Assembly: GCA_032250835.1 (NCBI GenBank)
Contig: JAVVEA010000016.1
Location: forward strand, 21,845 to 85,844
Length of the DNA: 64,000 nucleotides
Direction: 5' to 3'
Origin: a bacterium
Lineage (GTDB): Bacteria; SAR324; XYD2-FULL-50-16
The translations under genes were made by a program, and so were the position numbers. Each line of letters begins with the position of its first letter. Position 1 is the stretch's first letter. Positions 5,969 to 60,897 of the stretch are shown here, in pieces. The notes beneath the pieces are model-generated. The model was not told the origin of the DNA. It worked only from the letters and a program-made list of their open reading frames with translations, and did no database searches.

Positions 5969-8900
5969 CGTTGCTCCTCAATCACAATAGACAAATCAGT
6001 CACTTCGTAAATTCTCAAGCCTTCTTTATAAAGCGAGGCGTCGGCGCTCAGCCGGACCCAGCCCGATCCCCGCTCGAGGCCCTTAATATGGGCTTCCGTT
6101 TCCATCCATTCATTCTGCGGAATGATCTGTCCCCGGTATTTCCATTGGCAGTTACCCAAAGCATGGGTGAAGCGGGGGTTGATTAGATCCTGATAAAGCC
6201 CCTGTTCTAAGGCAAAGACGCGTAAGCTCTGGATGATCGCCTCGACACCCAAACTACCGGGCATGACGGGGTCTTCAAAGAAGTGGCAGGGGAAAAACCA
6301 ATCTGCGGCGTCCACTGCCTTTTTGCCGTACACATATCCCTTACCGAAGATTCCACCCATGGGATCTAAACCGACTTGATCCAAAAAGTTCAGGTGCTTT
6401 CGGCCCAAGCGGGGGCTCCCCTGGAACAATGTCCTGTTGGTTTTCAGGTCCAAGGTGGTGGGTAGCGGACGCGAGGTTTCATGCCAAAAGGGGCGTTTCT
6501 TACCGCTGTCGAGTCCTAACTGGTTAGCCAACGCCTTCGGAGTAAAGTAGCCGAAGGTGGTTTTACCTTGGTAGAACTTATCCCCGGCCACCCAAAGCTC
6601 AAAGCGGTATTGCTGGATGATGGTGCCGCCTGAGGCGCTGGTGCTATCGAGCCAGCAACGGCAGGTCACCCGCTGCCCGGCCAAGGGCGGGTCGGCCAAC
6701 ATCTCGGCCTGGGCGTCTAGGTTCCTAAAGCAAAGTTGCTCCTCAGGGTAGAGCAGCGGACTGCCCATCATCGCGCCCAAAACCCCGCAGGGTTGCAGGG
6801 CAATTTCCATAATCACCGCATAGGGCGTCACGCCCCCATGGCTGTCTAAAAGAAACCAAGCATCTGGGGCAATGTCATATTCGGTTTCTAAAAAGCTGGC
6901 CTGCTTGAAGTCGCCCCTAGTCCCTTCAAACCTAGTGGCCCGGCTGACCAACTGCAAGGCCCCGTTGGGGTTGCGTTGGCTGGGCCGGCCTTCGAAGAGG
7001 TCAAACTCGGGGCCGAAGGCCTGACTCAAGGAGCCTAAGGCAAATTCTTCGATCTGCGCGTCCGTGAGGGCCAAGTCTCGGGTCTCGGGGGCCTGCAACG
7101 CCTTGGGCGAGTCTGCTTCTTTTTCCACCAGCTCAATACCCACATCCAAGAAATCGACAATCACCTTGCCGTCTAAGATGATGTCCACATTCGCCTTGGC
7201 GTAGGGGCGCGGGTGCAGGCCAATCTCCTTGACTTCCATGCGGTATTCCAGCAAGCCATCGCCCGGTAAAACCTGTCCCCGGCAGCGGACCTTGTTGGCC
7301 AAGTTTTTGATCGGCACAAAGCGGGCGTTTTGAGTCTGGGTCTGCATGCCGATGTAGAGCAGATAAAACTCTAATAGCTGCACACAACCTTCGGCCATCA
7401 GACTGCCGGCCAAACAAGAATCGTCTTTGAAGTGGCAGGGAAAATACCAGTGGTCGGGCTTAAAGTCCTTCTGGGCGCGCACTTCGCCTAAGCCCCAAAG
7501 CCCGCCGAAGGGGGCCACTTCGGTGATCCGGTCGAGCATCAGGAATTCTTCGGTCGAAAAACGTAGCGAGCCGTTACGCCCCTGTTGGTCAAACTGGGGC
7601 CCCAGACAGGCGGAGATTTCGCCCCGGCAGAGCCGCACCAATTCGGCGCGGCCAAATTGCTTTTTGCCGCAGAGCATGGGCGGCTCAAAACGTTGGGGCA
7701 CTACCTTGGCGCGCTCGGCCTTTTCCTTTTCGGTCAGGATCACGCCCTTGCCTTTGTCTAAGTCTTCTTGGCTGAAGAACCCGGCGCAACCGTCGGTCAT
7801 GGTATGGACCAACTGGTCGCCCACAAAACAATCGTAATGGAAGAAGAACAGCAGGTTGTGGCCATGTTTGGCGAAGCTGTCGATATAAATCTCATACCGC
7901 ATGGTCTGCCCTTCTCGGGGCATTTCGCCCTTAAAGGTTAAGGTGCAGTCCAACAGGCGGTAAAGGTAGGTGCCTTGGTTTTCGAAGTCCACGCCCAGAT
8001 AGCTGATCAAGACCAAATCACATTGCCCGGCCTCCACGGCCACCGCCCAGGGGATTTGTCCATCTACGCAGTGCCAAGCATTGGCAGGCACGTCATATTC
8101 GGTGATCATCTTCGAGGGCTTTAGGCTGCGCTTCTCGGCGGTCATGCCTGTCACACGGTTGACCAACAGGTAGGGCGGCAGAGGCAAGCGCACGCGGGGG
8201 CCATATTGGTCGATCACGCCATATTCAGGCCCGAAAACCGGGGCGATTTTCCCGGCCGCAAATTCCATCAGGTCCGTCTCGTCCCAGAGGATTCCCGGCT
8301 CCGACTCCTTGCGCCGCCCTGAGTCCACAAAGGCCGTGGGGTGTTGGGCCAACAGCTCGGGCAGGGTCGGGGTGCGGTATAACAGTTGTTCCTTATAGTC
8401 ATCTACCGGCGCTTGCACCGGGACAGGAGCCTGGGGGTCTAGCAACTGTTGGTTTAAAACCAACTGCCCGGCATATTGCCGCAGCCCTTGTTTGCGGGCC
8501 AATAAAAAGGCCCGGTGGTTTTCGCTGATCCGCTGGCGGGTCTGGTAAAGGGCGGCCATAGCCCGACTTTGGGCCAACAGGCTTCCGGGCTCGAAGGCCG
8601 GTGGCGCGGGTTCGGCCAGAGTCAGCTCGCGCGCGCTAACCGCCGGGGCCGGTGGCCCTGCTGGGGCAGGCGCCAAATTTTGCGGGGCGGGCTCGGGAAT
8701 ATCAGGGAAAATATGTTGCGACGGGCTGGGCCCACGGCCCAACAGTTTGCGGCCTTCAGTCAGAATATGTTCTTCAATAGAAGCGCTGCCCTGATCGATC
8801 AGCTGGGGCATCTTTCCTTTGCCCAAGGGCATCTGGTTAACCGGCGGAGCAAAGAGACTCCAATCGACCAGAACGCCCTGGACGGTCAGTTTAGCTAAGG

Positions 8901-11900
8901 CCCTAAGCAAGGCCTGATCCCCCTCCATGCCTTTCTGGTCCAAGCCCAGGGCGAGGTGGGCTTGGCTGCCTAAAATCTCGTCGATCCACTTAGAACAGCT
9001 CTGGCGGGGCCCTAATTCCACAAAGAGGCGGGTGCCGTCCTGGTAGGCCTTTTCGATCAATCGGGGGAAATCTACGCTTTGGCAATAGATTCCCGCAATG
9101 TTTTCGGCCAGTTGGCGCTCGGTGGTTTCGGTGGTTTGGTAGGTTCGTGCCGTATAAAAGTCCAAGGCAGGCGAAGAGACCACCGGGCAGGTATGTAGCT
9201 CCTTTAAAGCCTTATAGTCCGCCTGGACGAAGTCCGCATGGATGGCGTCGGAGATGGGCAGTTCCCGGGCCTCAAAGCCCGTCGCCTTGAGCATCTTCAA
9301 GAGCGCGGCTCGTTCGCCCCCAACCACCGCTTCTGTGGGGCTGTTTTGGATCATCAAATACACCCGATCACGTTGGGCCACCGCGGCTTCTAGCGCGGCA
9401 CGCGGGGCGCGGACCGCCAGGGTAATCCAATCTACTTTTTGGCCTTTCTTCAGTTTCCAAGCCTTGCGGACCGTCTCCATGGGACCGGCCAAGTGGGTTT
9501 GGAAAACCGGTTTTTTGTGTAAATATTCACTTAAGGAGTCGGTGTTTTCCCAAAGGCCCAGCGCAAAGGCCATGGTCACTTCCCCCATGCTATAGCCCAG
9601 CGCGGCGTCGGGCTCGACCCCTAAAAAGCGGCGCAAAACCTGGGTCTGCAACATGCTGGCGTTGATACCCGTCTCAAACATAGCAATGGCGTCACGCACC
9701 AATTCTATTTGCAGTTCCTTTTCGGCGTTCGCGTCCAGTGGTTCCAAACGCCGGGGGAAAATCTGCTGGTCCCGGAAGAGGCTGGCCGGGTCTTTTGCAT
9801 AGCCTTGCGGTAGGTCATGCAGCTCCGGGAAGAAGCGCATCAGCCCCGCACCCATCCCCAGATAGCTGTTAAATCCGCCGGGATAGACAAAGGCCAACTT
9901 GCCCTGGGCGGTTAAGTCTTGGGCCGAAAAAGTCGAACCTGCCGGGGAATGCCAGTCTTGGCCCTTTGGGGCCGCCTGGGCGATGCCTTCTAAAGCGGCT
10001 TTACGTTCAGCCACTAATTCCCCCGGGCTGGCGGCCAACAACACCAAGCGGAACTTACCTTGGTCTTTGGCTTGCGTACTGCCCCAGCTTTCGGCCAGAA
10101 ACTGATCCTCAGCCAGTTCCCCGGCCTCTAGCTGATCCAACAGAGCCTTTAGGCTCTTTGCGGTGAACTTAAAGGCACGCAAACCATGGGTCCAGCGTTC
10201 CATAGGACGCCCCAACGCGGGGGTTTCGGACTCACCCAAGAGGATGTGGTAGTCCTCACCGCTGAGGGCCAAGTGGTTGACTGCCGCCAATCTCCGCTGC
10301 CCAAAGGAAAGCCAAGGGCGAGAGCTTTGGGGCACGTACAGGGGGCTTTGGAGCCCTAGCTCTGCTTTGGGCCCCTTCCAGTCGGCGGTGCCGGGGATGT
10401 ATTTGAGCTTAAGCGCCAAAGCGGTCTTGATCAGCGCGGCGACCCCCAAACTAGCTTCAAGCCGCCCGAATACCGAACTAACCGAACCCAGCGCCGCTAC
10501 TTGGTCTTTCAGCTCCCGAGCCAGGCCCTTGGCTTCGATCTGCGCCAACTTCTGTTCGGCCAGCGCGCTTACCTCTAAGTAACCCGGCTTGCCCAGGTCT
10601 TTGTAAAGGCGCTTGAGTGCGCCCGAACGGGTCTTGGGCCCGAAGCGCTCGATCGCTTCGATGTGCGCATAGACCGGCAAACGGTCTTCAAGGGCCCGTT
10701 TCTTGGTGGTTAAAACCAAAGCCCCGGCCCCCTCACCGGGCTGGCTGCCCTCGTGGCCTTTGCTCCAGTAGTGACCGGCGGCTCCTTGCACCAAGGTGGG
10801 GTTTTCTTTTAGCTGCAACAGGCATTCTTCGGGCGCGCCCAAAAGGTCTACGCCGCCCAAAACCACCGCCTCGGCCTGCCCCGAAGCCAACAGCAATTGG
10901 GCCAATTCTAGCGCCTTGTATCCTGTAGAATCTTCTGAAGAAACCGAAAAGGCAGGGCCCGTAAAGTCCCACTGGGAAGCGACCCGGCAGGCCATAATAT
11001 TGCCGATGAAGCTGGTGAATTGGTTAAAACCCACCGGGTTGTGCAGGGCGTCTTTGGTCACCTCTTTGAGCTGCGCTCGTTCGGCGTCGCTCAAGGCCAA
11101 TCCGGCCCGCTCAAAGGCCATGGGTAGTTTTAGGTCCAGTTCCACCCGGCCCCGGAAGCGGTGCAGCCCTAAATCGGTTTCCATCCCCACCAGAACAGCG
11201 ACCTTGGACCCAGGCTTAAGTCCCGCATCGCGGATCGCTCGGTCGGCGACCTTGAGCATCAACAATTGTTGGCTGATCAAAGGGTCCGCCGGATTGGGCG
11301 GGATCTTATGGGTCAGGAAGTCAAAATCAAAGGGTTTGAGCCAAGCTCCCTGGGGGGGCGCTACGGCCCGCAGCCGCTCCAAGCCACTCCAGCGGGTTTT
11401 AGGCAACGGACGCGAGTCCGGTCGGGCCTCATAGAGCTTCGCCTGGAATTGATCTAACCCTTGGGCAGAGCCAAACCAAGCCTCCATGCCCACGATCGAC
11501 AGGGGTGTCTGGACTGGGCGCGGCTTGAGGGCGCGGGGCAGTTTAGTGGGCTTGGGGGCCCGCTCGAAAATAACATGGGCGTTGGTGCCGCCAAAGCCAA
11601 AGGCGTTGACCGCGCCTAGGCGTTTTTCGGGGTGCTTGGCGGGCCAGGGGCGCTCTGAGGTGACCATCTTGTCCCCGTCGATCCAGCCCTTAGCGGAACT
11701 CAGCGGGTCTTTTAGGTGGATGGTCGCGGGGATGCGGCCTTCCTTCATGGCCAAAATCACCTTCATCATGCTGGCCATCCCGGCGGCGGTCAGCAAGTGG
11801 CCGAAGTTGGACTTTACTGAGCCAATGGGGAAATCGGCCCCGGTGGGCGCAAAGAACTCTTCCATGCTGGTCAATTCGGTCTTGTCCCCTAAAGGTGTCC

Positions 11901-12903
11901 CGGTGGCGTGACACTCGACATACTCTAAGTCTTCGGGCTTTAGGTCCGAGCCTTCATAGGCGCGCTCAAAACATTGCCGTTGGCCTTTGGGGTTGGGGCT
12001 TAAGATGCCCTTACCGGCTCCGTCGTTGCTTAAGCCGTAACCCACCAAGACCGCCTCAATGGTATCGCCGTCTCTTAAGGCGTCCTCATAGCGCTTGAGC
12101 AAAAACAATCCCGCTCCTTCCCCGGCCACCAAGCCCTGGCTGTTTTTATCCAGCGGCGCGGAATTGCGGCCCAAAGGATAGGCCTGGAAGGTGGAAAAGC
12201 CCATGTTCACAAAGAAGGGGTCCGCCGCCGAGACGGCCCCGGCGAGCATCATATCCGTTTTGCCGCTAGCCAGGTATTCAGCGGCCAGCGCTAAGGCATA
12301 AAGAGAGGAGGCACAAGCGGCATCTAAGGCCAAAGACACCCCACCCAAGCCCAGTGCCTCGGCGGCAACCAGCGCCGGTCGGCCTGAGATGCGCCGGTTT
12401 TCTAAAGCCGAGGGTCCGGCCGATTCGATCTTAACCGAAGGATTCTCCAATAACCGCCGCAGGCCCCGTTCCTGGGCCTGATGGTACAGGGGGATGACTA
12501 GGCGGTTGCTGCTTTTGGTGGGGAAAGACAAATTGCCTAAAATCAAGCCGCAGCGCTCTAAAGCTTCGGGCTTATCCCAATACCCCGCCTTGGTCAGGGC
12601 TTCTCGGCCCACCCAGGTGGGCCATTGGCAAACCTCGTCGAGGGATTCTAAGCGTTTGGGGTGGACCCGATACCCTTGGGCGTCAAAGTGGAAGTCGTCG
12701 ATGAAGCCGCCGCGTAGGTTATAATACTTGTCCGGCTGGCCCTTGGAATCCGCCAAAAAGGCACTAGGGTCCAGGCCGATCTCGCGCAGCCCGGCGTCAC
12801 GGGTCAAGTCGCGGCCCGCAAAGAGGTTGTCTAAAAACTCTTCGGGGTTTTTCGCCCCCGGAAACAGACAAGCCAGGGAGATGACGGCGATACGTTGGAA
12901 CAT
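5965..12903 (-). CDS. pfaBC: Fused PfaB/PfaC-type protein: KS - chain-length factor - AT - FabA-like dehydratase domains
   Basis: KS with DAACASS, HATGT, GHLLTAAG; second KS-like domain lacking the catalytic Cys (SSEDST); AT GYSMG; DH motifs FPCHFKDD and FPCHFFED. Confidence 0.92.
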   Translation of the reverse strand: MFQRIAVISLACLFPGAKNPEEFLDNLFAGRDLTRDAGLREIGLDPSAFLADSKGQPDKYYNLRGGFIDDFHFDAQGYRVHPKRLESLDEVCQWPTWVGREALTKAGYWDKPEALERCGLILGNLSFPTKSSNRLVIPLYHQAQERGLRRLLENPSVKIESAGPSALENRRISGRPALVAAEALGLGGVSLALDAACASSLYALALAAEYLASGKTDMMLAGAVSAADPFFVNMGFSTFQAYPLGRNSAPLDKNSQGLVAGEGAGLFLLKRYEDALRDGDTIEAVLVGYGLSNDGAGKGILSPNPKGQRQCFERAYEGSDLKPEDLEYVECHATGTPLGDKTELTSMEEFFAPTGADFPIGSVKSNFGHLLTAAGMASMMKVILAMKEGRIPATIHLKDPLSSAKGWIDGDKMVTSERPWPAKHPEKRLGAVNAFGFGGTNAHVIFERAPKPTKLPRALKPRPVQTPLSIVGMEAWFGSAQGLDQFQAKLYEARPDSRPLPKTRWSGLERLRAVAPPQGAWLKPFDFDFLTHKIPPNPADPLISQQLLMLKVADRAIRDAGLKPGSKVAVLVGMETDLGLHRFRGRVELDLKLPMAFERAGLALSDAERAQLKEVTKDALHNPVGFNQFTSFIGNIMACRVASQWDFTGPAFSVSSEDSTGYKALELAQLLLASGQAEAVVLGGVDLLGAPEECLLQLKENPTLVQGAAGHYWSKGHEGSQPGEGAGALVLTTKKRALEDRLPVYAHIEAIERFGPKTRSGALKRLYKDLGKPGYLEVSALAEQKLAQIEAKGLARELKDQVAALGSVSSVFGRLEASLGVAALIKTALALKLKYIPGTADWKGPKAELGLQSPLYVPQSSRPWLSFGQRRLAAVNHLALSGEDYHILLGESETPALGRPMERWTHGLRAFKFTAKSLKALLDQLEAGELAEDQFLAESWGSTQAKDQGKFRLVLLAASPGELVAERKAALEGIAQAAPKGQDWHSPAGSTFSAQDLTAQGKLAFVYPGGFNSYLGMGAGLMRFFPELHDLPQGYAKDPASLFRDQQIFPRRLEPLDANAEKELQIELVRDAIAMFETGINASMLQTQVLRRFLGVEPDAALGYSMGEVTMAFALGLWENTDSLSEYLHKKPVFQTHLAGPMETVRKAWKLKKGQKVDWITLAVRAPRAALEAAVAQRDRVYLMIQNSPTEAVVGGERAALLKMLKATGFEARELPISDAIHADFVQADYKALKELHTCPVVSSPALDFYTARTYQTTETTERQLAENIAGIYCQSVDFPRLIEKAYQDGTRLFVELGPRQSCSKWIDEILGSQAHLALGLDQKGMEGDQALLRALAKLTVQGVLVDWSLFAPPVNQMPLGKGKMPQLIDQGSASIEEHILTEGRKLLGRGPSPSQHIFPDIPEPAPQNLAPAPAGPPAPAVSARELTLAEPAPPAFEPGSLLAQSRAMAALYQTRQRISENHRAFLLARKQGLRQYAGQLVLNQQLLDPQAPVPVQAPVDDYKEQLLYRTPTLPELLAQHPTAFVDSGRRKESEPGILWDETDLMEFAAGKIAPVFGPEYGVIDQYGPRVRLPLPPYLLVNRVTGMTAEKRSLKPSKMITEYDVPANAWHCVDGQIPWAVAVEAGQCDLVLISYLGVDFENQGTYLYRLLDCTLTFKGEMPREGQTMRYEIYIDSFAKHGHNLLFFFHYDCFVGDQLVHTMTDGCAGFFSQEDLDKGKGVILTEKEKAERAKVVPQRFEPPMLCGKKQFGRAELVRLCRGEISACLGPQFDQQGRNGSLRFSTEEFLMLDRITEVAPFGGLWGLGEVRAQKDFKPDHWYFPCHFKDDSCLAGSLMAEGCVQLLEFYLLYIGMQTQTQNARFVPIKNLANKVRCRGQVLPGDGLLEYRMEVKEIGLHPRPYAKANVDIILDGKVIVDFLDVGIELVEKEADSPKALQAPETRDLALTDAQIEEFALGSLSQAFGPEFDLFEGRPSQRNPNGALQLVSRATRFEGTRGDFKQASFLETEYDIAPDAWFLLDSHGGVTPYAVIMEIALQPCGVLGAMMGSPLLYPEEQLCFRNLDAQAEMLADPPLAGQRVTCRCWLDSTSASGGTIIQQYRFELWVAGDKFYQGKTTFGYFTPKALANQLGLDSGKKRPFWHETSRPLPTTLDLKTNRTLFQGSPRLGRKHLNFLDQVGLDPMGGIFGKGYVYGKKAVDAADWFFPCHFFEDPVMPGSLGVEAIIQSLRVFALEQGLYQDLINPRFTHALGNCQWKYRGQIIPQNEWMETEAHIKGLERGSGWVRLSADASLYKEGLRIYEVTDLSIVIEEQR

Positions 12904-12906
12904 GGG

Positions 12907-15900
12907 CTAAAACTTCTCGTTGAGGTTTTCGCTGATCGTCACTTCGGCACCGATCATCTCACTAAATACATTTCCTTGCCCGTCCACCAAACTGACATCG
13001 GCCTTGAGCCGGCCGGGGTCGGCTTCGCGCACTTTCAGCAACAGATAAAAGGGCTGATCCATCGGGGCCGGGGCAAAGGGGTGGAAGGCGTCGATACTCA
13101 AGGGCAGACTGGCGTTGCCGGTCAGGAATCGAGCCTGGACCAAAAGGGCCTGAAGGGCTTGGTCGTCGGCCAGGGGGTTGAGCATGACCGGCGCAAAGGG
13201 GCCTAAACCGCTTAAGGGTTTGAGCCCGCAGCGCAACGAAAGCTTGCGGTCCTCTTGGTGGATCACCTCCAAAATCCCTTGGAAGGCCGGGCCGTGGAAC
13301 AGGGTTTTGTCTTGATAGAGCTTGCTGGCATCGGCCCCAGGCTTTGGGGCGAAGTCGCGGCGGGCCTTGGGCGGAGGGCCCATGGCCAAGTTAATGCGGG
13401 CCGAGTAGTGGATCATCGGCAATTTCTTGCCCGGACTGGTCAGCTTAGCTTCCAGCCAAATCCCCTGCTCGCCTTTTTCGCCTTCTTTTAAATCCAAGGT
13501 AAAGCGGGTCTTTTGGTCTAAGACCACCCCCTTGAGCACCTTGACCGACACCACCGCCGCCACATGGTAGCCCGGATAGAGCTTAGCGGCCCCTTCGGCC
13601 ATCCAGGCCAGCGCAAAGACCATGGGCAACACGGGCTTGCCGCCGATGCTGTGGTCTTTAAAGCCCTTGAGCGCCTTGGGGTCCACATCCCGTTCGATCT
13701 GGTAAGACTCCAAAGGGCCCGAAGGGGGCAGCGGCGTGACCATGCCGCTCCCGATCACCAACTGATTGGGTCCCCTTTTGGCCGACATTTCGTCCACCAA
13801 AGCGGCGGTCCCGGCAGCGGCGGGGATCACCTCAACGCCGCGCGACTCAAAAAGCCGCTGGAGCTGTGGAGTAACCATCCCCCCTTCCCAGGGGCCCCAA
13901 TTAAAAGAAACCACCTTGGCTTTGGGATAGCGCTTAACAAAGAGTTGGGCCGCTTTGTTGAGCACCTCATTAGCCAGGGCATAGTCCGACTGGCCTAGAT
14001 TGCCATAAAAACCTGCTGAAGAGCTGAACAGGGTCAGGTACTTTAGCTCTTTGGGGTCCAGCGCATCGAGCAAGGCCTTCAGCCCGCCGACCTTGGTGCC
14101 CACCACTTTCTCATAATCCCCGAAGCTCTTCTTCTCGATCAATTTATCGGCCAAGACGCCCGCCCCATGGATCAAGCCGGTCACTGGCCCCAGGTCGGTG
14201 GCTTTAAGGGCTTGCTGGATGGCCTTTGGGTCCGTCACGTCAGCGGCCAAATAGGCGGCCCGGCCCCCGGCGGCTTCAATGGCGGCTAAGGTCTGGTGGA
14301 TTTCACGTAGGCCTAAGACCTGATTGATCATGGACTGGACCTTGACCGGCGTAGGCTTTTCGCCTTGGGCTTGCAGGGCCTTGATGGCCGCCGCTTTGAG
14401 GTGGGGTTCATCGGTTTGGCCTAGTGCCCAAGCCGGTTCATCCCCTAAGGGACTACGGCCCAGCAAAATAAATCCGGCCTGACTGGCTTGGGCCAGCGCC
14501 ACCACGGACTTAGCGGTCACCCCTTTGGCACCGCCACTGACCAAAAAGACTTCTTTACTAGAAATCGGGGCCAGTTCGGCATTAAAGGCTTCCTTACGGG
14601 CGACCAACGTCCAACGCCCCTTTTGGGTCCAGCCGGTCTCGCCTAAAAGCAAGTCACTATCGGCCCACTCACTTAAAATCGGCCCCACGGGGTCCAACCC
14701 CGGTTCTAGGTCCACCATGCGGCAGAAGACCTGGGGCCATTCGACCTTTAAGGTCTTGACCAAGCCGCTCAAGCCACCGCCGTAGGCCCCAAACTGACTT
14801 TTCGCCGCCCAGCCCAACTGACCGTCTAACTGGGTGGCCACCATAAAGCAGCTACGGCCTTGGTTGAAGCCTTGGCTTAAGTCTTCCTTAAGCGCTTTAG
14901 CTAAAAAGAAAACCGACTGGACCAACGCCGCCTCGGCGTCACTAAACCAATCTTTGCCGTCAAAATGGGGGTGTAAATAAAGGAACCCACCGATCGGCGC
15001 GGTCTGGCGGGCCTCGGCTAGTGCCGCCGCCAGCGAAGCATCATCCAGTTGGGCCAGCTGGGGACCCTTCAGCCCGGCGGCTGTCTTTTGGCCGGGCAGG
15101 GTGAGGAAAAGCACCTGGGCCCAACCTGCGGCCTTCAGGGCTTTCGTCAATTTGGCGGCTTGGGCCGGGTCCCCGGCGAGCAGAATTTGACAGCCTTCAG
15201 GCGGATGTACCAACAACCGGTCGGGTTGGGCTAAGGCTTGCAAGGACACGGGCAAACGTCCGGCCCTTGGGCCTTGGGCCCTTTCCAGGGCCCCCGGGGT
15301 AGCCGCTAGCTCAGGGCTTTTTTTTTTGACCGCTTCGGCGATCTCGCCTAGCGTGCGCAAACTACTCAAAGCCTCGGGGTTCAACTCACCCAGGCTGGGC
15401 AGTTTTTCCTGTAAGGCATAGAGGATTTCTACCCGCTTGATGCTGTCGATCCCTAGGTCCGACTCTAGGTCCATGGCCAAGTCCAACATTTCGGCCTGAT
15501 AGCCGGTTTTCTCGGCCACCACCGCCAACAGGGCGGCTTCGGCCTCTGGACCGGGGCCGCTCGCTGCCACAGCGGCGGCCGGGGCCGGGGCTGCGGCTTG
15601 GCTGCCGCCCAATTGCTCGGCAATCTGGCCCAAGGTGCGCAGGCTGCTTAAGGCATCGGGATTGACCTCGCCCAAGGCCGGAAGTTTTTCTTGCAGCGCG
15701 TAGAGGATTTCGACCCGCTTGATGCTGTCGATACCCAGGTCCGACTCTAGGTCCATACCCAGATCCAACATTTCGGCCTGATAGCCGGTCTTCTCGGCGA
15801 CCACCGCCATCAACGCACCCACTACGTCCATCCCGCCTGTGGGGGCAGGAGCAGCGGAGGCTGGTGCAGCATGGGCCGGAGCTGCCGGGGCGGGAGCCGA

Positions 15901-18900
15901 AGCGCCCAAAGCTTCGGCGATTTGGCCTAGGGTCCTTAAGCTGCTTAGGGCCTCAGGGTTGACTTCGCCTAAGCTGGGTAACTTTTCTTGGATGGCGTAG
16001 AGGATTTCGACCCGCTTGATGCTGTCGATACCCAGGTCCGACTCTAGGTCCATACCCAGATCCAACATTTCGGCCTGATAGCCGGTCTTCTCGGCGACCA
16101 CCGCCATCAACGCACCCACCACGTCCATCCCGCCTGTGGGGGCAGGAGCCGCGGCGGCTGGTGCGGCCTTGGCCGGGGCTGCCGGGGCGGGAGCCGAAGC
16201 GCCTAAGGCTTCAGCGATTTGGCCTAGGGTCCTTAAGCTGCTTAGGGCCTCAGGGTTAACCTCGCCTAAGCTGGGTAACTTTTCTTGGATGGCGTAGAGG
16301 ATTTCCACCCGTTTGATGCTGTCGATGCCCAGGTCCGACTCTAGGTCCATGGACAGGTCCAGCATATCGGCTTGGTAGCCCGTCTTATCGGCCACTACGG
16401 CCAGCAAGGCGGTCGTCACCTCAGCGCCCCCTTGGGCGGCTGGTGCGGCTTTGGCCGAAGCCGCAGCAGGAGCGACCGAGGTCCCCGAGACCCCGCCAGC
16501 TTGCTGGGAGATGTGGTCCGCGATTTGTTGCAGCGTACGCAACTCGGCCAGCGCTTCGGGCTTGAGGGTCGGCAGTTGGGGCATGCCCTCTTGAAGGGCA
16601 TAAAGAATCTCCACCCGTTTGATGCTATCCACGCCCAAATCGGACTCTAAGTCCATCTCGGGGTCTAACATCTCGTGGGCATAGCCGGTCTTGCGGCTGA
16701 TCACCCCCAGCAGGTGGAAGAGAACATCCTCCCCTAAAGTTCTTCCGCCGTGGGCTGAAACCGCGGGGGCTTTCGCGGCGACCGGAACAGCCGCAGCAGA
16801 ACCGCCTAGGGACCGAACAATCTCACCTAAGGTCCGCAACTCACTTAAGGAATCGGGGTTTACCTCCCCTAAACTGGGTAACTTTTCTTGTAGCGCATAA
16901 AGGATTTCCACCCGTTTGATGCTGTCGATACCCAGGTCAGACTCTAGGTCCATGGACAGGTCCAGCATTTCCGCCTGATAGCCCGTTTTTTCGGCCACCA
17001 CGGCCATCAAAGCGGTCTTCACCTCGACGCTAGCGCTAGCCACCGGGGCAACCGGCTGAGGGCGCGGGGGAACCACCGGAGTGGGGGCCGGGGCCGTAGG
17101 TTTCGGCGCGATGGGCTGGGGGGCCACCGGCGGGGTCCTCTGCGGGGCCACCGGAGCCGGACGCGGGGCCGGAGTAGCGGGCGTAGCAGGCCGGGCTGGT
17201 CGGGGGCTGGTGCCCAAGGAACCACCTAAAATCGTCTGTTGCTGTTCGATCACCCGGAAGGCCTGCTCGGCAAATTCCGCTTGGTGGTTCAAATAGTTTT
17301 CATGGATCCGCAGCGTTTCGTTTTGGTGCTGTGTAAAGCCCTCAATCTGTGCCGCTAATTGAGCGGCGGCGGGGCTCTGCAATACCGCAAAAAAGGAGCG
17401 GGAATATTCGTTTTGGTTCGTTAAAAACTGCTCATGGACCCGGATCGTTTCGGCCTGATGGGACTGGAAGTCCTTTAGGCTCTGGCTCACGGCGGCCAAC
17501 ACTTCATGGTCTTGGGGATTCATAGCGGGCGGTTCAGGGTTTTTAGGGGCCACCGCTGGGGACTGGACAGCGGCCGGAACGACCGGCGCGGCTACCGGCG
17601 CAGCGGCCTGGACTATGGGGGTGGCCTGACGGATTTTATGGCCATCAACTAGGGCATCCGCAAAATTCTTGCGGGTCTGGGGGCTGACGTAGTTGGCCCC
17701 GGTCAAGGTCACCGAAGCCGGGCTGGGCTTGATCAAGACCGGCTCTTTGCGCAGCGCATAGGGGTCTAACTGGCCTAGCTCCAAGCCCAAAACCTTTAAT
17801 TCAGCATAGGCGCGGCGCAGTTGCAAATCACCAGAGCCCTTCGCACTGGCGTTGAGGGCCACGCAGACATGTTCCTTGCCGTTGAGGATGTTGCCGGTCA
17901 GCTTGCTTAAAATCGATTGGGGACCAAATTCCACAAAAATCCGGGCTCCGGCCTCATACATGGCCTCGATCTCATCGACAAAGCGCACAGAATGTAAGAT
18001 GTGCTCTTCTAGGGCTTTCTGGATCTTTTTAGGGTCCTGGGGGTGGGCTTTGCCGCTGGCGTTTGAGTACACCGGAATCTTAGGTGCCTTAAAGCTGGCC
18101 TTAGCAATGGCCTGGGCAAAGGGCTTTTGGGCATGGCCCACCAAAGGGGTGTGGAAGGCGGCAGAAACACCCAGCATCACGCAACTAAACTTTTGGGCCT
18201 TCAGCTTGGTGGCGGCCAGTTCCAGTTGGTCTTTCGGGCCCGCCAAGACCACCTGTTTCTTGCTGTTGTAATTGGCGGCTTTTAGGTCTTTAAACTCCTT
18301 GATCTGCGCCTCGATCCCTTCGACTTGGCCCATCACGGCCATCATGCCGCCTGCGTCCACGCCGTCTTGGGCCTTCATGGCGGCCCCTCGGGCTTGGGCT
18401 AGGCTCATATAATCGGACTCACTCAAAACCCCGGCGGCCCAAAGGGCGGTCAACTCGCCGAAGCTGTGGCCTGCTGCCATGTCGGCCTTAAAGCCCGCAT
18501 CGCTCATGAGCCGGTAAAGCCCCCGGCTAAAGACGCCAATGGCGGGCTGGGCATTTTCGGTCAATTGCAGCCGAGTTTCTTGGGCTTTGCGCTCAGCTGC
18601 GTCGAAGGTCGGCACCGGGAAAACCACCTGGCTGAGCGCTTCGGGCTCCTCGGCAAAGAGGGCGTCCATCTGGGCGAAACCGGCCTCAAAGGAAGGAAAG
18701 TTCCAAACCAAATCCTTGCCCATGTTTAGGTAAGGCGAACCCTGTCCGGCAAAGAGCGCAGCCACCGCGCCTTCCAAAGCCACTTCGCGGTAGTGGATGC
18801 CTTCGGGCAGCGAAAAGGCCCGTTCGTCGGTATTTTTATTGAGGCCCTCTAAGGCGGTGTCCAGCAGGTTGGCCGCCTCAACGGCGTCCGTAGCCACCAG

Positions 18901-20520
18901 CCCCAAACGGACATGGTTTTGGGGGATTTTTATCTCTGCACAGTCGGCGGCCCAGTCAAAAAAGACTTTGGGGGCCAACTCGCCGCGCAGCGCATCGCGC
19001 TTGGCAGCCAGTTCCCGAACCAAAGCGGCACGGTTGGCGGCGTGTAGGAATAAGGGCTCTGGTGCGCGGTGTAAGCGGAAAGGGGTAACTGAGGTTTGCT
19101 CGTATTCTTCTAAAACATAATGGAAGTTGGTGCCGCCAAAGCCGAAGGCGCTGATCCCCGCGCGGCGCGGCGGCGCACCCAAAGCCCGAACCCAGGGCCG
19201 GGTCTCGGTATTTAAATAAACTGGGGTGCCGTCCAGGCCCAGGGCAGGATTGGGCTCGGTGACGTTGATAGTCGCCGGTAGAACCTTATGGTGCAAGGCC
19301 AGGGCGACCTTGATGAGGCCCGCAGAACCGGCGGCGTTTTTGGTGTGGCCCATCTGGCTTTTGACGCTGCCCAAGGCCATGGTCTTGCGCGGTCCCTTAC
19401 CCATAAACTGGCTTAGGGCGCTCGACTCGGTGGCGTCACCGGCCTTGGTGCCCGTACCGTGGGCTTCCCAAAGACCGACGGTCTGCGGGTCCACTCCGGC
19501 GGCTTCATAGGCGCGGTTCATGGCCAGCAGTTGGCCTTCGGCGCGGGGCGCGTAGATGGACTTAAAGCGGCCATCAGAGCTAGAGCCCACGCCTTTGATC
19601 ACCGCGTAAATCTTGTCCCCGTCCGCTTCGGCGTCTTCAAGGCGCTTGAGCAGCAACATGCCGATACCCTCGCCGATCATGATGCCCGAAGAGTTTTTAT
19701 CAAAGGGCTGCAAGACTTCGTTGGAGGTGAAGGCCGGGGTCTTAGAAAAACACAGATACATATAGATGCTGTTGTCGGTGTCCACCCCACCGGTGATCAT
19801 CATATCCGAGCGGTATTCCAACAGGTCACTGATGGCCATGCGGATGCCCGCCAAGGAACTGGCGCAGGCGGCGTCGACCACGCAGTTGGTCCCGCCTAAA
19901 TCCAAGCGGTTGGCGATCCGGCCAGCGATCACGTTGCCTAAGGTACCGGGAAAGCTCATCTCTTCCCACTTCACATAGGCCTTCTTCATCTTTTCGATCA
20001 AATGCTTGCGGTCCTCAGGCTCGACGCCTTCAGAGGCCAAAACCTTTTCCCAGATCGGCGTTTGCAGGCGGCTGATCAAAGGATTCATCAACTTCTGCCC
20101 ACCGCCGACCCCTAAAATACAGCCCGTATGGGCGCGGTCAAACTCGCGGTGCCCCTCGCCATAACCGCCGTCTTCTAAGGCGCGTTTGGCCATCACTAAA
20201 GACAACAGCTGGCTAACGTCGGTGAGCTCTAGAATATTGGGCGGAAGCCCCCACTCGATGGGGTTGAACTCAATCCCAGGAATGAAGCCGCCTTGCTTTG
20301 AATAGGTCTTGTCCGGCTGGCTCTTGTCGGGGTCATAGTAGTCCTCAATATTCCAACGGTCCTCGGGCACCTCGCGGATGCAGTCGGCCTCTGAAAGAAT
20401 ATTTTCCCAGTAAGATTGTAGGTCTTTAGATTCGGGGAAGAGCGCCGACATGCCCACAATGGCGATCGGCGTTTTTTGCAGGCGTTTGTTGAGCTGTTTG
20501 CCAGAGCTTTTAGCGGCCAT
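12907..20520 (-). CDS. pfaA: PfaA-type iterative synthase: KS - MAT - 6xACP - KR - DH-like
   Basis: DAACASS, HGTGT and GHTK KS motifs; GHSFG and AFH MAT motifs; six LG(I/V)DSIKRVEI ACPs; KR GGAKGVT ... DYALAN; C-terminal DHSIGGKPVLP. Confidence 0.95.
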   Translation of the reverse strand: MAAKSSGKQLNKRLQKTPIAIVGMSALFPESKDLQSYWENILSEADCIREVPEDRWNIEDYYDPDKSQPDKTYSKQGGFIPGIEFNPIEWGLPPNILELTDVSQLLSLVMAKRALEDGGYGEGHREFDRAHTGCILGVGGGQKLMNPLISRLQTPIWEKVLASEGVEPEDRKHLIEKMKKAYVKWEEMSFPGTLGNVIAGRIANRLDLGGTNCVVDAACASSLAGIRMAISDLLEYRSDMMITGGVDTDNSIYMYLCFSKTPAFTSNEVLQPFDKNSSGIMIGEGIGMLLLKRLEDAEADGDKIYAVIKGVGSSSDGRFKSIYAPRAEGQLLAMNRAYEAAGVDPQTVGLWEAHGTGTKAGDATESSALSQFMGKGPRKTMALGSVKSQMGHTKNAAGSAGLIKVALALHHKVLPATINVTEPNPALGLDGTPVYLNTETRPWVRALGAPPRRAGISAFGFGGTNFHYVLEEYEQTSVTPFRLHRAPEPLFLHAANRAALVRELAAKRDALRGELAPKVFFDWAADCAEIKIPQNHVRLGLVATDAVEAANLLDTALEGLNKNTDERAFSLPEGIHYREVALEGAVAALFAGQGSPYLNMGKDLVWNFPSFEAGFAQMDALFAEEPEALSQVVFPVPTFDAAERKAQETRLQLTENAQPAIGVFSRGLYRLMSDAGFKADMAAGHSFGELTALWAAGVLSESDYMSLAQARGAAMKAQDGVDAGGMMAVMGQVEGIEAQIKEFKDLKAANYNSKKQVVLAGPKDQLELAATKLKAQKFSCVMLGVSAAFHTPLVGHAQKPFAQAIAKASFKAPKIPVYSNASGKAHPQDPKKIQKALEEHILHSVRFVDEIEAMYEAGARIFVEFGPQSILSKLTGNILNGKEHVCVALNASAKGSGDLQLRRAYAELKVLGLELGQLDPYALRKEPVLIKPSPASVTLTGANYVSPQTRKNFADALVDGHKIRQATPIVQAAAPVAAPVVPAAVQSPAVAPKNPEPPAMNPQDHEVLAAVSQSLKDFQSHQAETIRVHEQFLTNQNEYSRSFFAVLQSPAAAQLAAQIEGFTQHQNETLRIHENYLNHQAEFAEQAFRVIEQQQTILGGSLGTSPRPARPATPATPAPRPAPVAPQRTPPVAPQPIAPKPTAPAPTPVVPPRPQPVAPVASASVEVKTALMAVVAEKTGYQAEMLDLSMDLESDLGIDSIKRVEILYALQEKLPSLGEVNPDSLSELRTLGEIVRSLGGSAAAVPVAAKAPAVSAHGGRTLGEDVLFHLLGVISRKTGYAHEMLDPEMDLESDLGVDSIKRVEILYALQEGMPQLPTLKPEALAELRTLQQIADHISQQAGGVSGTSVAPAAASAKAAPAAQGGAEVTTALLAVVADKTGYQADMLDLSMDLESDLGIDSIKRVEILYAIQEKLPSLGEVNPEALSSLRTLGQIAEALGASAPAPAAPAKAAPAAAAPAPTGGMDVVGALMAVVAEKTGYQAEMLDLGMDLESDLGIDSIKRVEILYAIQEKLPSLGEVNPEALSSLRTLGQIAEALGASAPAPAAPAHAAPASAAPAPTGGMDVVGALMAVVAEKTGYQAEMLDLGMDLESDLGIDSIKRVEILYALQEKLPALGEVNPDALSSLRTLGQIAEQLGGSQAAAPAPAAAVAASGPGPEAEAALLAVVAEKTGYQAEMLDLAMDLESDLGIDSIKRVEILYALQEKLPSLGELNPEALSSLRTLGEIAEAVKKKSPELAATPGALERAQGPRAGRLPVSLQALAQPDRLLVHPPEGCQILLAGDPAQAAKLTKALKAAGWAQVLFLTLPGQKTAAGLKGPQLAQLDDASLAAALAEARQTAPIGGFLYLHPHFDGKDWFSDAEAALVQSVFFLAKALKEDLSQGFNQGRSCFMVATQLDGQLGWAAKSQFGAYGGGLSGLVKTLKVEWPQVFCRMVDLEPGLDPVGPILSEWADSDLLLGETGWTQKGRWTLVARKEAFNAELAPISSKEVFLVSGGAKGVTAKSVVALAQASQAGFILLGRSPLGDEPAWALGQTDEPHLKAAAIKALQAQGEKPTPVKVQSMINQVLGLREIHQTLAAIEAAGGRAAYLAADVTDPKAIQQALKATDLGPVTGLIHGAGVLADKLIEKKSFGDYEKVVGTKVGGLKALLDALDPKELKYLTLFSSSAGFYGNLGQSDYALANEVLNKAAQLFVKRYPKAKVVSFNWGPWEGGMVTPQLQRLFESRGVEVIPAAAGTAALVDEMSAKRGPNQLVIGSGMVTPLPPSGPLESYQIERDVDPKALKGFKDHSIGGKPVLPMVFALAWMAEGAAKLYPGYHVAAVVSVKVLKGVVLDQKTRFTLDLKEGEKGEQGIWLEAKLTSPGKKLPMIHYSARINLAMGPPPKARRDFAPKPGADASKLYQDKTLFHGPAFQGILEVIHQEDRKLSLRCGLKPLSGLGPFAPVMLNPLADDQALQALLVQARFLTGNASLPLSIDAFHPFAPAPMDQPFYLLLKVREADPGRLKADVSLVDGQGNVFSEMIGAEVTISENLNEKF
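15335..17030 (-). repeat. Six tandem ACP-coding repeats with Ala/Pro linkers
   Basis: Six copies of KTGY..EMLD..MDLESDLG.DSIKRVEIL; copies 4 and 5 are nearly identical at DNA level with a 297-bp period. Confidence 0.92.
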
Positions 20521-20658: not shown

Positions 20659-21615
20659 TTATGACAGCCCCCTTGTCATTATTTTTATTGCTTCAGCAAC
20701 CATCCTAGAAATCAGCTCTTTACAAGTCGGAATATCTTCGATCAACCCCACCGACTGACCGCAGGCAAAAAGAAAGTGATCGATTTCACCGGCTTCTAAG
20801 GCCTTCAGACCCAACCGGCCCGAAAGATGCGGGGCCAATTCGGCCAACTCGGCCCCGGCCTGCTCCATGGCCAACACCTTTTCGGCCTGTTGGTTGCGCA
20901 GAACCCGCAGGCTGTTGTTTAAGCTGCGCTCGACCAAGAGGGTCTCATTTTCTTGAGCGGCCACCAAGGCTTCTTTGATCTTCTGGTGCACCGGTGCTTC
21001 CTGGGTCGCCAAGAACCGGGTGCCCATGTTCACCCCTTCGGCACCCAAGGCCAACGAGGCAGCCAAGCCGCGCCCGTCGGCGATCCCGCCCGAGGCAATG
21101 ACCGGAATTTTGAGCGCCGCGGCCACCCGAGGGATCAACACCAAACCGCCCACATCCTGCTCGCCGGGATGCCCGGCGCATTCAAAGCCGTCGATGCTAA
21201 CCACGTCCACGCCGATCTTCTCGGCCTTAAGGGCATGTTTTAAGCTGGTGCATTTATGGATCACCTTCACCCCGGCGCTCTTGAGCAAGGCCATATAGGG
21301 CTCCGGGTTGCGCCCGGCGGTTTCGATGATCTTCACCCCCGCTTTCAAGATAACCTCGGCGTAGGCTTCGTAGGGGACCGGCTTGAGGGTCGGTAAGAAG
21401 GTGAGGTTTACGGCAAAGGGCCGGTCCGTCAGGCGGCGGATCTCGGCAATCTCTTCGGCCACCAGACCGGGCTCCGGCAGGCTCAAGGCGGTCAAGATAC
21501 CCAGCCCGCCCGCATTCGACACCGCGGCCACCAAGGGGGCCCGAGAGACCCACATCATGCCCCCCTGGACAATCGGTGCCTCAATCCCCAACAACTCAGT
21601 GAGCCTGGTTTTCAT
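20659..21615 (-). CDS. Nitronate monooxygenase / FabK-like flavin oxidoreductase
   Basis: PIVQGGM, VSNAGGLG, DGFECAGHPG, ASGGIADGRG, MGTRF. Confidence 0.88.
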   Translation of the reverse strand: MKTRLTELLGIEAPIVQGGMMWVSRAPLVAAVSNAGGLGILTALSLPEPGLVAEEIAEIRRLTDRPFAVNLTFLPTLKPVPYEAYAEVILKAGVKIIETAGRNPEPYMALLKSAGVKVIHKCTSLKHALKAEKIGVDVVSIDGFECAGHPGEQDVGGLVLIPRVAAALKIPVIASGGIADGRGLAASLALGAEGVNMGTRFLATQEAPVHQKIKEALVAAQENETLLVERSLNNSLRVLRNQQAEKVLAMEQAGAELAELAPHLSGRLGLKALEAGEIDHFLFACGQSVGLIEDIPTCKELISRMVAEAIKIMTRGLS

Positions 21616-21616
21616 T

Positions 21617-22519
21617 TTATCCTTTTAGGGCTGCCGTTAAGGCGGGAACAAATTCCAGCAGGTCGGCGACCACGATGTATTGGGCCACTTCGCCGATGGG
21701 GGCTTCTTTGTCTTTGTTGACCGCAATGATCATCTCGGACTTTTTCATGCCCGCTAAGTGCTGCACGGCACCGGAAATGCCGCAGGCCATGTAGAGCTTA
21801 GGGGTGACCGTAGCTCCGGTACTGCCCACCTGATGGGCCGCTTCAATCCAGCCGGAGTCAACGACCGGACGGCTCGCGCCGACCTGGGCCCCGAGGGCAT
21901 CGGCCAAATCACGGATCAGTTGCAAGTTTTCGGGTTTGCCGATGCCGCGTCCGCCAGAAACGATCTTTTCGGCTTTGCTCAAGTCCACCCCTTGGGCCGG
22001 TTTGGGTTGGTAGCCCGTAAGTTGGGGGCCTTCGCCGGTGGTGATGGCAATAGATTCTTCTTGAGGGCTCCCGGCAGCCGTTGCGGCGGCGAAGGCACCG
22101 GCCTGAATGGTCACCACCACTAGGCCCGGCTTAGGGGTTACCTTGCGTTGTAGTTTCCCGTTGCAGCAGCCTAGCTGATAAAGCCCCGCATCATAGCCAA
22201 CCACCTCGCTGATCTGGGCAGCCTCTTGGGCCAAAGCCAGCCTAGGGGCTAAGTCCCAGCCATAGGCCGAGTGCATCAAGACCACTAAATCGGGTTGTTC
22301 CTGCTCGATCACCGCCAAAGCCGCCGCTTTGTGGGCCTTAGGGGCATATTCGGGGCCTTGGCCCACATACAACTTGCCCCCGAAGGCCGGGCGGTCGCTA
22401 CTGTCGCCCAGCATCAAGCCGACGGTCTCGGCCCCCATGGTCTCGGCAAAGCCCAGCAGTTCCGCAAAGCTGGCGGCCAGTTTGCCCTGGACCACTTCTC
22501 CAATCAATAAAGCTTTCAT
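21617..22519 (-). CDS. etfA: Electron transfer flavoprotein alpha subunit
   Basis: SGGRG, GASRPVVD, QVGSTG, GISGAVQH, NKDKEAPI. Confidence 0.95.
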   Translation of the reverse strand: MKALLIGEVVQGKLAASFAELLGFAETMGAETVGLMLGDSSDRPAFGGKLYVGQGPEYAPKAHKAAALAVIEQEQPDLVVLMHSAYGWDLAPRLALAQEAAQISEVVGYDAGLYQLGCCNGKLQRKVTPKPGLVVVTIQAGAFAAATAAGSPQEESIAITTGEGPQLTGYQPKPAQGVDLSKAEKIVSGGRGIGKPENLQLIRDLADALGAQVGASRPVVDSGWIEAAHQVGSTGATVTPKLYMACGISGAVQHLAGMKKSEMIIAVNKDKEAPIGEVAQYIVVADLLEFVPALTAALKG

Positions 22520-22528
22520 GGTCCCTCC

Positions 22529-23296
22529 CTATCCGATCAGTTTGTTGTCTTTTAAAATAGCCACCACCTGAGCCACCTGGGCCGAGAGGTCCCCTTCGAT
22601 CAGCTCGGCCGCTCCGCGCTTAGGCGGTGCCCCGATCTCTTTAACGCCCAGCACCGCCTCGCCCGTTCCGCTCACCTCCAAGGTTTCCATGGGCTTCTTT
22701 TTAGCCTTCATGATGTTGGGCAGCGTGGGGTAGCGGGGCTGGTTCAGGCCCAACTGGCAGGTCACCAGGGCCGGGGTAGCCAAGGTCACTTGGGCCCTGA
22801 TCCCGCCTTCTAGCTCCCGTTCGCCTTGAATCTTTCCGCCTTCAAAACTAAACTCAACCAAGGTACTGACCGAGTCGATCCCGAGCAGCTCTGCCAGCAA
22901 AATCCCCACCTGGGCCGAGCCCCGGTCTTGGGACTGCATACCCGTAAAAATCAGCTCAAAACCCTTGTCTTTGACGGCGCTGTGGATGGCGCGTGCCACC
23001 TGTAGGCTATCCTTTTGGGGTCCTTGGGGATCTAACAGGTGGATGGCCTGATCGGCACCCATGGCCAGCGCTTTTTTGAGCGCCTCACTAGACCGTTGGG
23101 GCCCGAGGCTCAAGACCGTCAAGCTGGCGGCGTCGCCTAGCTTTTCCTTCACTTGCACCGCCGCCTCGATGGCGTATTCATCATATTCATTGATGCGGAA
23201 GGCCAAGTCCGTCTCTTCAAACCAAGACCCGCCTGGGGGAACCACGAAGCGCGATTCCATATCCGCCACTTGTTTGATGCAAACCAGAATATTCAT
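22529..23296 (-). CDS. etfB: Electron transfer flavoprotein beta subunit
   Basis: ILVCIKQV, ALAMGAD, PRYPTLPNIMKAKKK. Confidence 0.95.
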   Translation of the reverse strand: MNILVCIKQVADMESRFVVPPGGSWFEETDLAFRINEYDEYAIEAAVQVKEKLGDAASLTVLSLGPQRSSEALKKALAMGADQAIHLLDPQGPQKDSLQVARAIHSAVKDKGFELIFTGMQSQDRGSAQVGILLAELLGIDSVSTLVEFSFEGGKIQGERELEGGIRAQVTLATPALVTCQLGLNQPRYPTLPNIMKAKKKPMETLEVSGTGEAVLGVKEIGAPPKRGAAELIEGDLSAQVAQVVAILKDNKLIG

Positions 23297-25287: not shown

Positions 25288-25349
25288 GGGCAAAAAGATT
25301 ATAAAGGTTATTTTTAGGTTTTGAGTATAACCAGCTTATTAGGGGCTTG

Positions 25350-60598: not shown

Positions 60599-60897
60599 GG
60601 TTTCTCCCCATTGGGTTTCAGGTATCGGCTGCAGACCCCCGTCCAGAGTGCTAAAAGAGGGTCTAATATCAGAATATTGGAATAGAAGTATAAGCCAGAA
60701 AGGTTTGACTTGAAAAGAAAATATTCAACTATAACTAAAAAAAAATGCCGCGCTGGCAAAAAGCGTAGCCCTGAACTTCTTGCCCAGAGGACGCCGAAAT
60801 GATATGGGGATAGAGGTACTGACCAGACTTTTGGTCGGTCACCGAAACTAGCACTAGTTATCGTTAACCGGACAGCCCTCCCAATCAAGGAGTAACA

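Follow-up and report, generated by a model that had tools for sequence, protein, structure and literature searches.

A run of ten adenines at the ACP/KR junction of a PfaA-type synthase gene: a probable conserved recoding site

Introduction

Why does a gene for a 2537-residue lipid synthase, intact and in frame, carry a run of ten adenines (A10) between two of its domains, with stop codons close by in both other frames? The question arises in a 64,000-nucleotide stretch of DNA from a bacterium of the SAR324 lineage (GTDB XYD2-FULL-50-16; GenBank assembly GCA_032250835.1, contig JAVVEA010000016.1, positions 21,845 to 85,844 of the forward strand), hereafter the window, and within it in a pfaA-like gene at 12907–20520 on the minus strand, whose product contains KS, MAT, six ACP, KR and PS-DH domains. 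A sequence-only reading of the window had suggested that the run allows this gene to yield both a full-length and a KR-less subunit, or else that it acts as a phase-variation switch. We have compared the junction across 114 loci, and we propose that, in synthases of the PfaA/HglE type, the A10 run is probably a conserved site of recoding by slippage between ACP and KR.

Runs of nine A or T make bacterial RNA polymerase slip with high efficiency (PMC5009743), and poly-A allows ribosomes to slide and to terminate at out-of-frame stops (PMC4363877).

Results

A slippery run and two near stops lie right behind the last ACP

On the minus strand the ACP/KR junction reads GTC AAAAAAAAAA GCC CTG AGC TAG. 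The A10 run, our proposed slippage site (15318–15327, minus strand; T10 on the plus strand), is in frame in the 2537-aa open reading frame (ORF), where the region encodes V1731 K1732 K1733 K1734 S1735 and the run itself supplies K1732–K1734 and the first base of S1735. It begins right behind the sixth and last ACP, a PP-binding match in Pfam that covers aa 1663–1731 (15328–15534, minus strand), and the KR domain begins near aa 1992.

Either shift of frame would end translation within a few codons. With one A inserted, or after a −1 shift, the frame reads AAG CCC TGA and stops at 15311–15313 (minus strand), two codons past the run, for a predicted product of 1736 aa ending in ...AVKKKKP; with one A lost, it reads GCC CTG AGC TAG and stops at 15306–15308 (minus strand), three codons past the run, for a predicted product of 1737 aa ending in ...AVKKKALS. 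Equally near stops in both shifted frames are found at about 2% of pfaA codon positions, which gives the background. Each of the two stops depends on a minor codon, the TGA on CCT (17% of Pro codons) followed by GA and the TAG on CTA (10% of Leu codons) followed by G. The run also contains, in the zero frame, the heptamer A_AAA_AAA, which has the X_XXY_YYZ form of −1 ribosomal frameshift sites. The features that mark a slippage site, an A run of at least about nine in a coding region and close stops in both shifted frames, are therefore both present, and every element of the arrangement that the sequence-only reading had described at this junction was recovered.

The same reading had noticed no longer homopolymer in any coding sequence of the window. 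In the 3.66 Mb of the genome (54.7% G+C) there are 69 A/T runs of nine bases, four of ten and one of eleven, and the pfaA run is the only one of ten or more inside a long ORF. AAA accounts for 47% of the Lys codons in the 1928 ORFs that reach 250 aa, and only two of the 138 KKK tripeptides in ORFs of that size are written AAA-AAA-AAA, one of them at the pfaA site; the genome avoids AAA-AAA-AAA elsewhere. It is because of this coding context, and not because of base composition, that the A10 run exceeds chance. Where nine-base A/T runs occur within long stop-to-stop frames, most are found in the opening few percent of the frame and probably sit upstream of the true start. A separate nine-base run in the window, at 60737–60745 (A9 on the plus strand, T9 in the sense direction), lies mid-frame (relative position 0.52) in a minus-strand open frame of 251 aa. 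Among protein domains that could bear on the phylum, SusD_RagB was detected in a Bacteroides control and gave no match in this genome, and Por_Secre_tail gave no match in this genome or in any control.

The run recurs at the same junction across phyla

A census of ACP/KR junctions was assembled from three sources. We searched 41 related genomes with protein residues 1650–2100, which gave matches in 32 and returned 30 loci; the last ACP and the KR were placed in the loci by tblastn, and 29 of these 30 contain both. Named genomes were scanned with an alignment of eight in-frame junctions and the best 80 of 596 relatives were taken, and a scan of metagenome contigs with the window's protein added five loci. 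The resulting census of 114 junctions counts this genome.

Among the junctions so chosen, 73 of 114 carry a run of nine to twelve adenines (A9–A12) at the same spot. Where the longest A run is A9 or more, the KR lies in frame in 40 junctions, in the −1 frame in 32 and in the +1 frame in one; at A6–A8 the corresponding counts are 16, 4 and 0, and below six adenines all 21 junctions are in frame. Within the related genomes the run is nearly universal, at A9–A12 in 28 of 29 loci, with a single exception (L007) that has six A's. Eight of these 29 loci, this genome and its closest relative (L002) among them, are in frame, and the other 21 have KR-DH in the −1 frame, with the ACP frame closing 1–11 codons past the run.

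Loci bearing the run span Cyanobacteriota, Bacteroidota, Pseudomonadota and Chloroflexota as well as the related genomes. They include many Nostocales (mostly GAA AAA AAA AAG, in frame), Calothrix PCC 7103, a Xenococcus bin and Saprospiraceae bins, together with Flammeovirga, a Ketobacter bin, Thiotrichaceae and Parabeggiatoa bins and a Chloroflexota bin. No junction run of nine or more A's was found in the marine pfaA genes (Shewanella, Moritella, Colwellia, Photobacterium, Vibrio, Psychromonas) or in the actinomycete homologues sampled. Conservation of the run and of the out-of-frame stops across the ACP–KR linker, which the sequence-only reading had named as the test of its idea, is thus what the alignment of homologues returned. 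Both the A run and the organisation of the ORFs are kept in non-identical homologues, as Baranov et al. (2005) ask of a functional slippage site (PMC1088944).

The census also bears on a simpler account, in which the protein needs a KKK patch in the ACP–KR linker, the run is a by-product of codon choice and the split loci are ordinary gene fissions. KKK is indeed found in in-frame and shifted products alike, and one Saprospiraceae locus has a true ATG overlapping the stop. However, every one of the 37 split junctions carries six A's or more in a row, the KR is in the −1 frame in 36 of the 37, 25 of the 37 offer no start codon, and the marine PfaA genes and actinomycete homologues do without a junction run of nine or more A's. 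We regard this account as very improbable.

Several individual loci deserve mention. The Saprospiraceae locus just noted (L086), from a metagenome bin, is split behind 6–7 A's, with its real ATG in the overlap ATGA, and has the look of a true gene split that arose from the recoding form. Three further Saprospiraceae bins (L091, L107, L108) have six A's, a zero-frame A_AAA_AAG heptamer, a stop 0–1 codons later and the KR in the −1 frame. A Coleofasciculus bin (L092) provides the only junction with the KR in the +1 frame, behind an A9 run; its KR frame is open for 247 codons and has the linker motif right after the run, and it may require the loss of one A in the RNA, or may reflect an assembly error. 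Two loci from Gammaproteobacteria/Parabeggiatoa bins (L090, L096), with A11 and A10 respectively and the KR in the −1 frame, group inside a cyanobacterial clade beside the Xenococcus bin, a placement suggesting that the cluster moved from one phylum to another and kept its slippery site. The KR of L071, from a bin labelled uncultured Acetobacteraceae, falls inside a tight Nostoc clade (branch length 0.003), and its contig is probably cyanobacterial and mis-binned.

Out-of-frame relatives appear to depend on recoding

If the split loci were simply two genes, the KR-DH frame would call for a start of its own. In 25 of the 37, the KR frame offers no ATG, GTG or TTG anywhere from its upstream stop to the beginning of KR homology, and a conserved peptide motif of the linker is read in the KR frame immediately past the run. 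KR-DH in most split loci would therefore be made only through slippage at the run. These downstream frames are long, staying open for 737–883 codons where the locus contains them whole, and they are conserved as proteins: the ratio of nonsynonymous to synonymous divergence (dN/dS) is 0.09–0.23 in all nine scorable pairs of out-of-frame KR-DH sequences, at a synonymous divergence (dS) of 0.3 to above 2, with a tenth pair saturated. Every such pair keeps the run and the −1 state. By this measure the out-of-frame KR-DH frames are under purifying selection, and recoding at the junction is, as read from their frames and starts, required in the 32 relatives that have the KR in the −1 frame behind a run of nine or more. 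The criterion of Baranov et al. for functional slippage sites (PMC1088944) fits these loci. Given KR-DH in the −1 frame behind the run in 32 relatives, a short KS-MAT-ACP product alongside a full-length one is the expected output of the gene family.

We considered whether DNA-level phase variation could account for the two states, with run length changing during replication and KR-DH, and so the lipid product, being switched heritably. Homopolymer runs are classic contingency loci, and in-frame and out-of-frame states are both present among the relatives. Yet run length and frame state are identical within all seven genera that have at least two genomes, which is not the pattern of a contingency locus; the out-of-frame states at A9 or longer are uneven (32 in −1 against 1 in +1); and purifying selection on the out-of-frame KR-DH extends to dS values above 2. 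In-frame and −1 states are, moreover, each found at A9, A10 and A11, so the difference between them is not merely that of one run changing length. No metagenome contig carrying the exact 24-base stretch beside the run was found. The phase-variation switch offered by the sequence-only reading as its second option thus finds no backing here, and we consider it quite improbable.

Errors of homopolymer length in assembly or sequencing, in this genome or in the split relatives, would be a more trivial cause. Many of the loci come from metagenome bins, and homopolymers are error-prone on some platforms; the same state nevertheless recurs in independent assemblies within a genus, and errors would create neither the out-of-frame stops that flank the run nor the lack of start codons. 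We judge this explanation exceedingly improbable. Taken as a set, the start-codon, selection and stability observations argue against the split loci being pseudogenes, against sequencing error and against rapid phase variation in the DNA.

The in-frame clade keeps the run and its stops

This genome is one of the eight in-frame loci from the related genomes, where full-length protein is available without any shift. On a quick tree of 99 KR sequences (ten rows whose KR match contained a stop were left out, and L111–L115 are absent) it groups with L002, L005, L003 and L004, with a support of 97 in the Shimodaira–Hasegawa-like approximate likelihood ratio test (SH-aLRT). The closest relative, L002, has 60% identity and also A10, and L111 and L112 match the window at 55–56% identity. 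Seven in-frame loci of this clade keep A10 or A11 at 44–60% protein identity. In five of them (L001, L002, L005, L111, L112) the run is A10 and both shifted frames stop within three codons; in L003 and L004 it is A11, with stops at 7 and 12 codons. The predicted tails of L112, KKKKP and KKKALS, are the same as in this genome, and there a K stands in place of E with the stop still kept, as TAA instead of TGA.

Given KKK and each locus's own share of AAA, six independent lineages would all retain nothing but AAA codons within the run with a probability of about 2e-5, a figure that assumes saturated, independent synonymous sites. The in-frame Nostocales clade behaves alike, with A9–A11 kept in 22 of 25 tree rows. 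These observations suggest that selection acts on both run and stops even where the gene is in frame. A kept run with stops made from minor codons is as expected if the short product is wanted.

The alternative on which the in-frame clade bears most directly is that the run is a tolerated relic: the family would recode where the KR is out of frame, a one-base change would have restored the frame here, and the run would persist with its slipped products as waste. Such a history sits well with a gene that is in frame in this genome, with a tree that needs only six changes between in-frame and −1 states, and with the survey of Baranov et al. (2005), in which evidence of functional use was lacking for 40 of the 53 gene groups that have a nine-base run of A or T (PMC1088944). 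It has more difficulty with a run retained at 44–60% protein identity against an expectation of about 2e-5, with minor-codon stops kept within three codons in both shifted frames by five of the seven clade members, with the 22 of 25 Nostocales rows, and with a genome that otherwise avoids AAA-AAA-AAA. We consider a relic unlikely, and favour a recoding site that is maintained.

No shared RNA structure was found beside the run

A GGGCCCU-GGAA-AGGGCCC hairpin is predicted by minimum-energy folding at 15276–15293 (minus strand), beginning 24 nt past the A10 run. The sequence-only reading had drawn attention to it; the hairpin is there, but a role for it in frameshifting could not be upheld, and it is probably outside the mechanism. 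Its region folds no better than shuffled sequence (z score −1.06, with 32 of 200 shuffles as good; the 73 nt upstream of the run give z −0.73), and it sits in a stretch that is missing from the closest relative, L002. On these two grounds the hairpin was ruled out as a stimulator.

The conserved RNA structure a few bases downstream that characterises a stimulated −1 frameshift was not found in the sets folded: RNAalifold returned 0 pairs both for a clade of eight and for a group of 14 out-of-frame relatives. Of 29 out-of-frame loci folded singly against mononucleotide shuffles, 8 fell below z −2, and on this basis lineage-specific stimulatory structures may exist. Relatives of family f6 (L017–L024, L018, L030) include several with z below −2 for the 60 nt after the run, the lowest being L021 at −5.2, and an alignment of the f6 relatives revealed no shared structure.

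The gene is the PfaA subunit of a PUFA-synthase-type cluster

The ORF list, the translation and Pfam together define the gene at 12907–20520. KS, MAT, tandem ACPs, KR and PS-DH are found together in one chain, and all Pfam matches exceed their cut-offs. The two domains that would be lost from the predicted short products are the KR (aa 1992–2212; 13885–14547, minus strand) and the PS-DH (aa 2390–2533; 12922–13353, minus strand). Two partner genes neighbour it on the same strand. A pfaC-like gene of 2312 aa (5965–12903) shows two KS-type domains (KS and KS-like), an acyltransferase (AT) and two FabA-like dehydratases (DH) in a domain search, and a pfaD-like enoyl reductase gene of 529 aa (4379–5968) matches PfaD_N, NMO and FabD_helical_ins. 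With these neighbours, 12907–20520 is the PfaA subunit of a polyunsaturated fatty acid (PUFA)-synthase-type (pfa/hgl) cluster. The acyltransferase of the pfaC-like gene is placed between the KS pair and the FabA-like dehydratases, and this is the layout described as AT fused to pfaC in Type D pfa clusters.

Directly upstream of the pfaA-like gene, on the same strand at 20659–27670, a fatty-acid oxidation set adjoins the lipid synthase operon. It comprises an NMO-type (FabK-like) reductase, electron-transfer flavoprotein alpha and beta, an Fe-S/CCG-domain oxidoreductase, an acyl-CoA dehydrogenase and a thiolase.

Discussion

We propose that the A10 run acts through slippage as follows. On the T10 template, RNA polymerase would realign the all-A RNA and release transcripts with one or more A's gained or lost, and ribosomes may in addition slide or shift −1 on the A run. 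Unslipped transcripts, or those changed by three A's, would encode full-length PfaA (KS-MAT-ACP6-KR-DH, 2537 aa). Transcripts with one extra A would reach the TGA and give the 1736-aa form, those with one A fewer would reach the TAG and give the 1737-aa form, and both short products would be KS-MAT-ACP6 proteins that lack KR and DH. The −1 relatives would use the same site in reverse, with only slipped transcripts or shifted ribosomes yielding the full-length enzyme. The claim that pfaA gives rise to full-length and KR-less subunits thereby gains support from the comparison of homologues (conserved run, conserved stops, −1 KR frames), with the short isoform itself a predicted product.

Since runs of nine to twelve A's are found without a shared stimulator, polymerase slippage is most likely the main route. 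In some lineages −1 shifting by ribosomes seems to work as well, to judge from the A_AAA_AAG forms. A likely use of the short form would be to set the ratio of the carrier and condensing module to the reducing and dehydrating module. The more ACPs subunit A has, the higher the PUFA output (PMC5067506), and on that ground a surplus of carrier-bearing subunits over reducing and dehydrating domains could be useful.

The closest parallel is dnaX of Thermus thermophilus, where a nine-base run, accompanied by stops in the two other frames, lets slippage make a short subunit in roughly the same amount as the long one (PMC5009743). As there, the long product of pfaA is encoded in one ORF with the run inside it and near stops in both other frames, and the short form would lack the C-terminal domains. 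The pfaA case differs in belonging to another gene family, in its run of ten and in being known from sequence alone, and many pfaA orthologues, unlike Thermus dnaX, would need slippage for the long form. Across species dnaX itself exists in both arrangements, with the shift yielding either the short form or, in dnaX genes whose tau depends on it, the long one (PMC5009743), and the PfaA family likewise has in-frame and −1 arrangements.

The −1 relatives find their counterpart in tssM. In Citrobacter rodentium tssM1, slippage at an A11 run restores the frame and yields two length variants, and both variants and their ratio are required (PMC4256274). Like tssM1 and Yersinia pseudotuberculosis tssM3, in which a chromosomal, non-mobile gene is interrupted behind poly-A and added A's restore the frame (PMC4256274), the 32 −1 relatives have their downstream frame behind the run. 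In contrast to tssM1, the DNA is in frame in this genome, and a need for both forms of PfaA is something that we infer. The A_AAA_AAG heptamer of −1 ribosomal frameshifting in Escherichia coli dnaX and IS3-type elements is matched exactly in the three Saprospiraceae relatives (L091, L107, L108). Unlike those systems, the pfaA family showed no conserved downstream structure, and most of its members have 9–12 A's, where polymerase slippage is expected to dominate.

Published descriptions of related clusters take another view of the split. In Type D pfa clusters (Aureispira marina, Psychroflexus torquis) the KR region is described as lying apart from pfaA, with the AT joined to pfaC (PMC4882568), and cyanobacterial hglEA and hglF are given as separate genes that compact islands fuse, with seven genes in five ORFs (PMC11804610). 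In the portions covered, both sources treat the split as two genes and mention neither a slippery run nor recoding. In this genome, unlike in either arrangement, the KR is fused in frame. The sequence-only reading, in line with the literature, had taken HglE to be a protein with its KR on a separate gene; among the 35 cyanobacterial homologues sampled, however, the KR is in frame behind A9–A11 in 27, and it is out of frame behind the run in four.

Several points weigh against our reading. The gene is in frame in this genome, so recoding is not needed for its function; slippage in this organism, its rate and the usefulness of the short form are matters that we infer; and the A10 length here rests on a draft assembly. 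By composition an A10 in 64 kb is unremarkable, at least one appearing in 32 of 100 dinucleotide shuffles of the window. The share of 73 in 114 is not a population frequency, as the named and metagenome loci were chosen by their likeness to KKK-bearing queries, and the counts overstate independent events because the loci are related to one another. AAA accounts for 70% of Lys codons outside the junction over all 73 run-bearing loci; since many of these relatives are AT-rich and prefer AAA, part of the conservation of the run could be cheap to keep. The quick tree asks for only the six changes of state mentioned above, the folds offer no consensus structure downstream of the run, and some bacteria appear to suppress slippage at such runs (Baranov 2005, PMC1088944). 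We have weighed these points in calling a conserved recoding site probable.

We found no published description of recoding in pfaA/hglE-type genes in the sources covered, although the supplementary tables of two recoding surveys, PMC3711429 (146 recoding clusters) and PMC1088944 (53 gene groups), might list the family. The main text of PMC3711429 uses the word polyketide once, in "polyketide cyclase", and the covered portion of PMC5009743 has no polyketide, ketoacyl, acyl carrier, heterocyst or polyunsaturated term. What we describe is a recoding signal of a known type in a gene family for which we found none reported.

A wider reading, to which we give about even weight, is that megasynthases of the PUFA-synthase and heterocyst-glycolipid types share an old, cross-phylum recoding switch by which the ratio of KS-MAT-ACPn to KR-DH is set. 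In Type D pfa clusters and some hgl islands, the "separate KR genes" would then be parts of slippage-made fusions, and in-frame and −1 alleles would represent mostly-long and mostly-short settings of the same switch.

To our knowledge, few ordinary chromosomal genes of bacteria carry a conserved recoding site; dnaX, tssM, some type III secretion genes and mapW are examples. If our reading is true, a large enzyme family, comprising PUFA-synthase and heterocyst-glycolipid-type enzymes in several phyla, would join them. The annotation of split pfaA/KR genes would change, as many would otherwise be called two genes or a pseudogene and most have no start codon for the KR. Heterologous expression would be affected as well. 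The Aureispira genes gave a very low yield of arachidonic acid in E. coli (PMC5067506), and a need for slippage could, speculatively, be one reason. For these synthases, the proposed site would also offer a testable idea of how the stoichiometry between carrier-bearing and reducing/dehydrating modules may be set.

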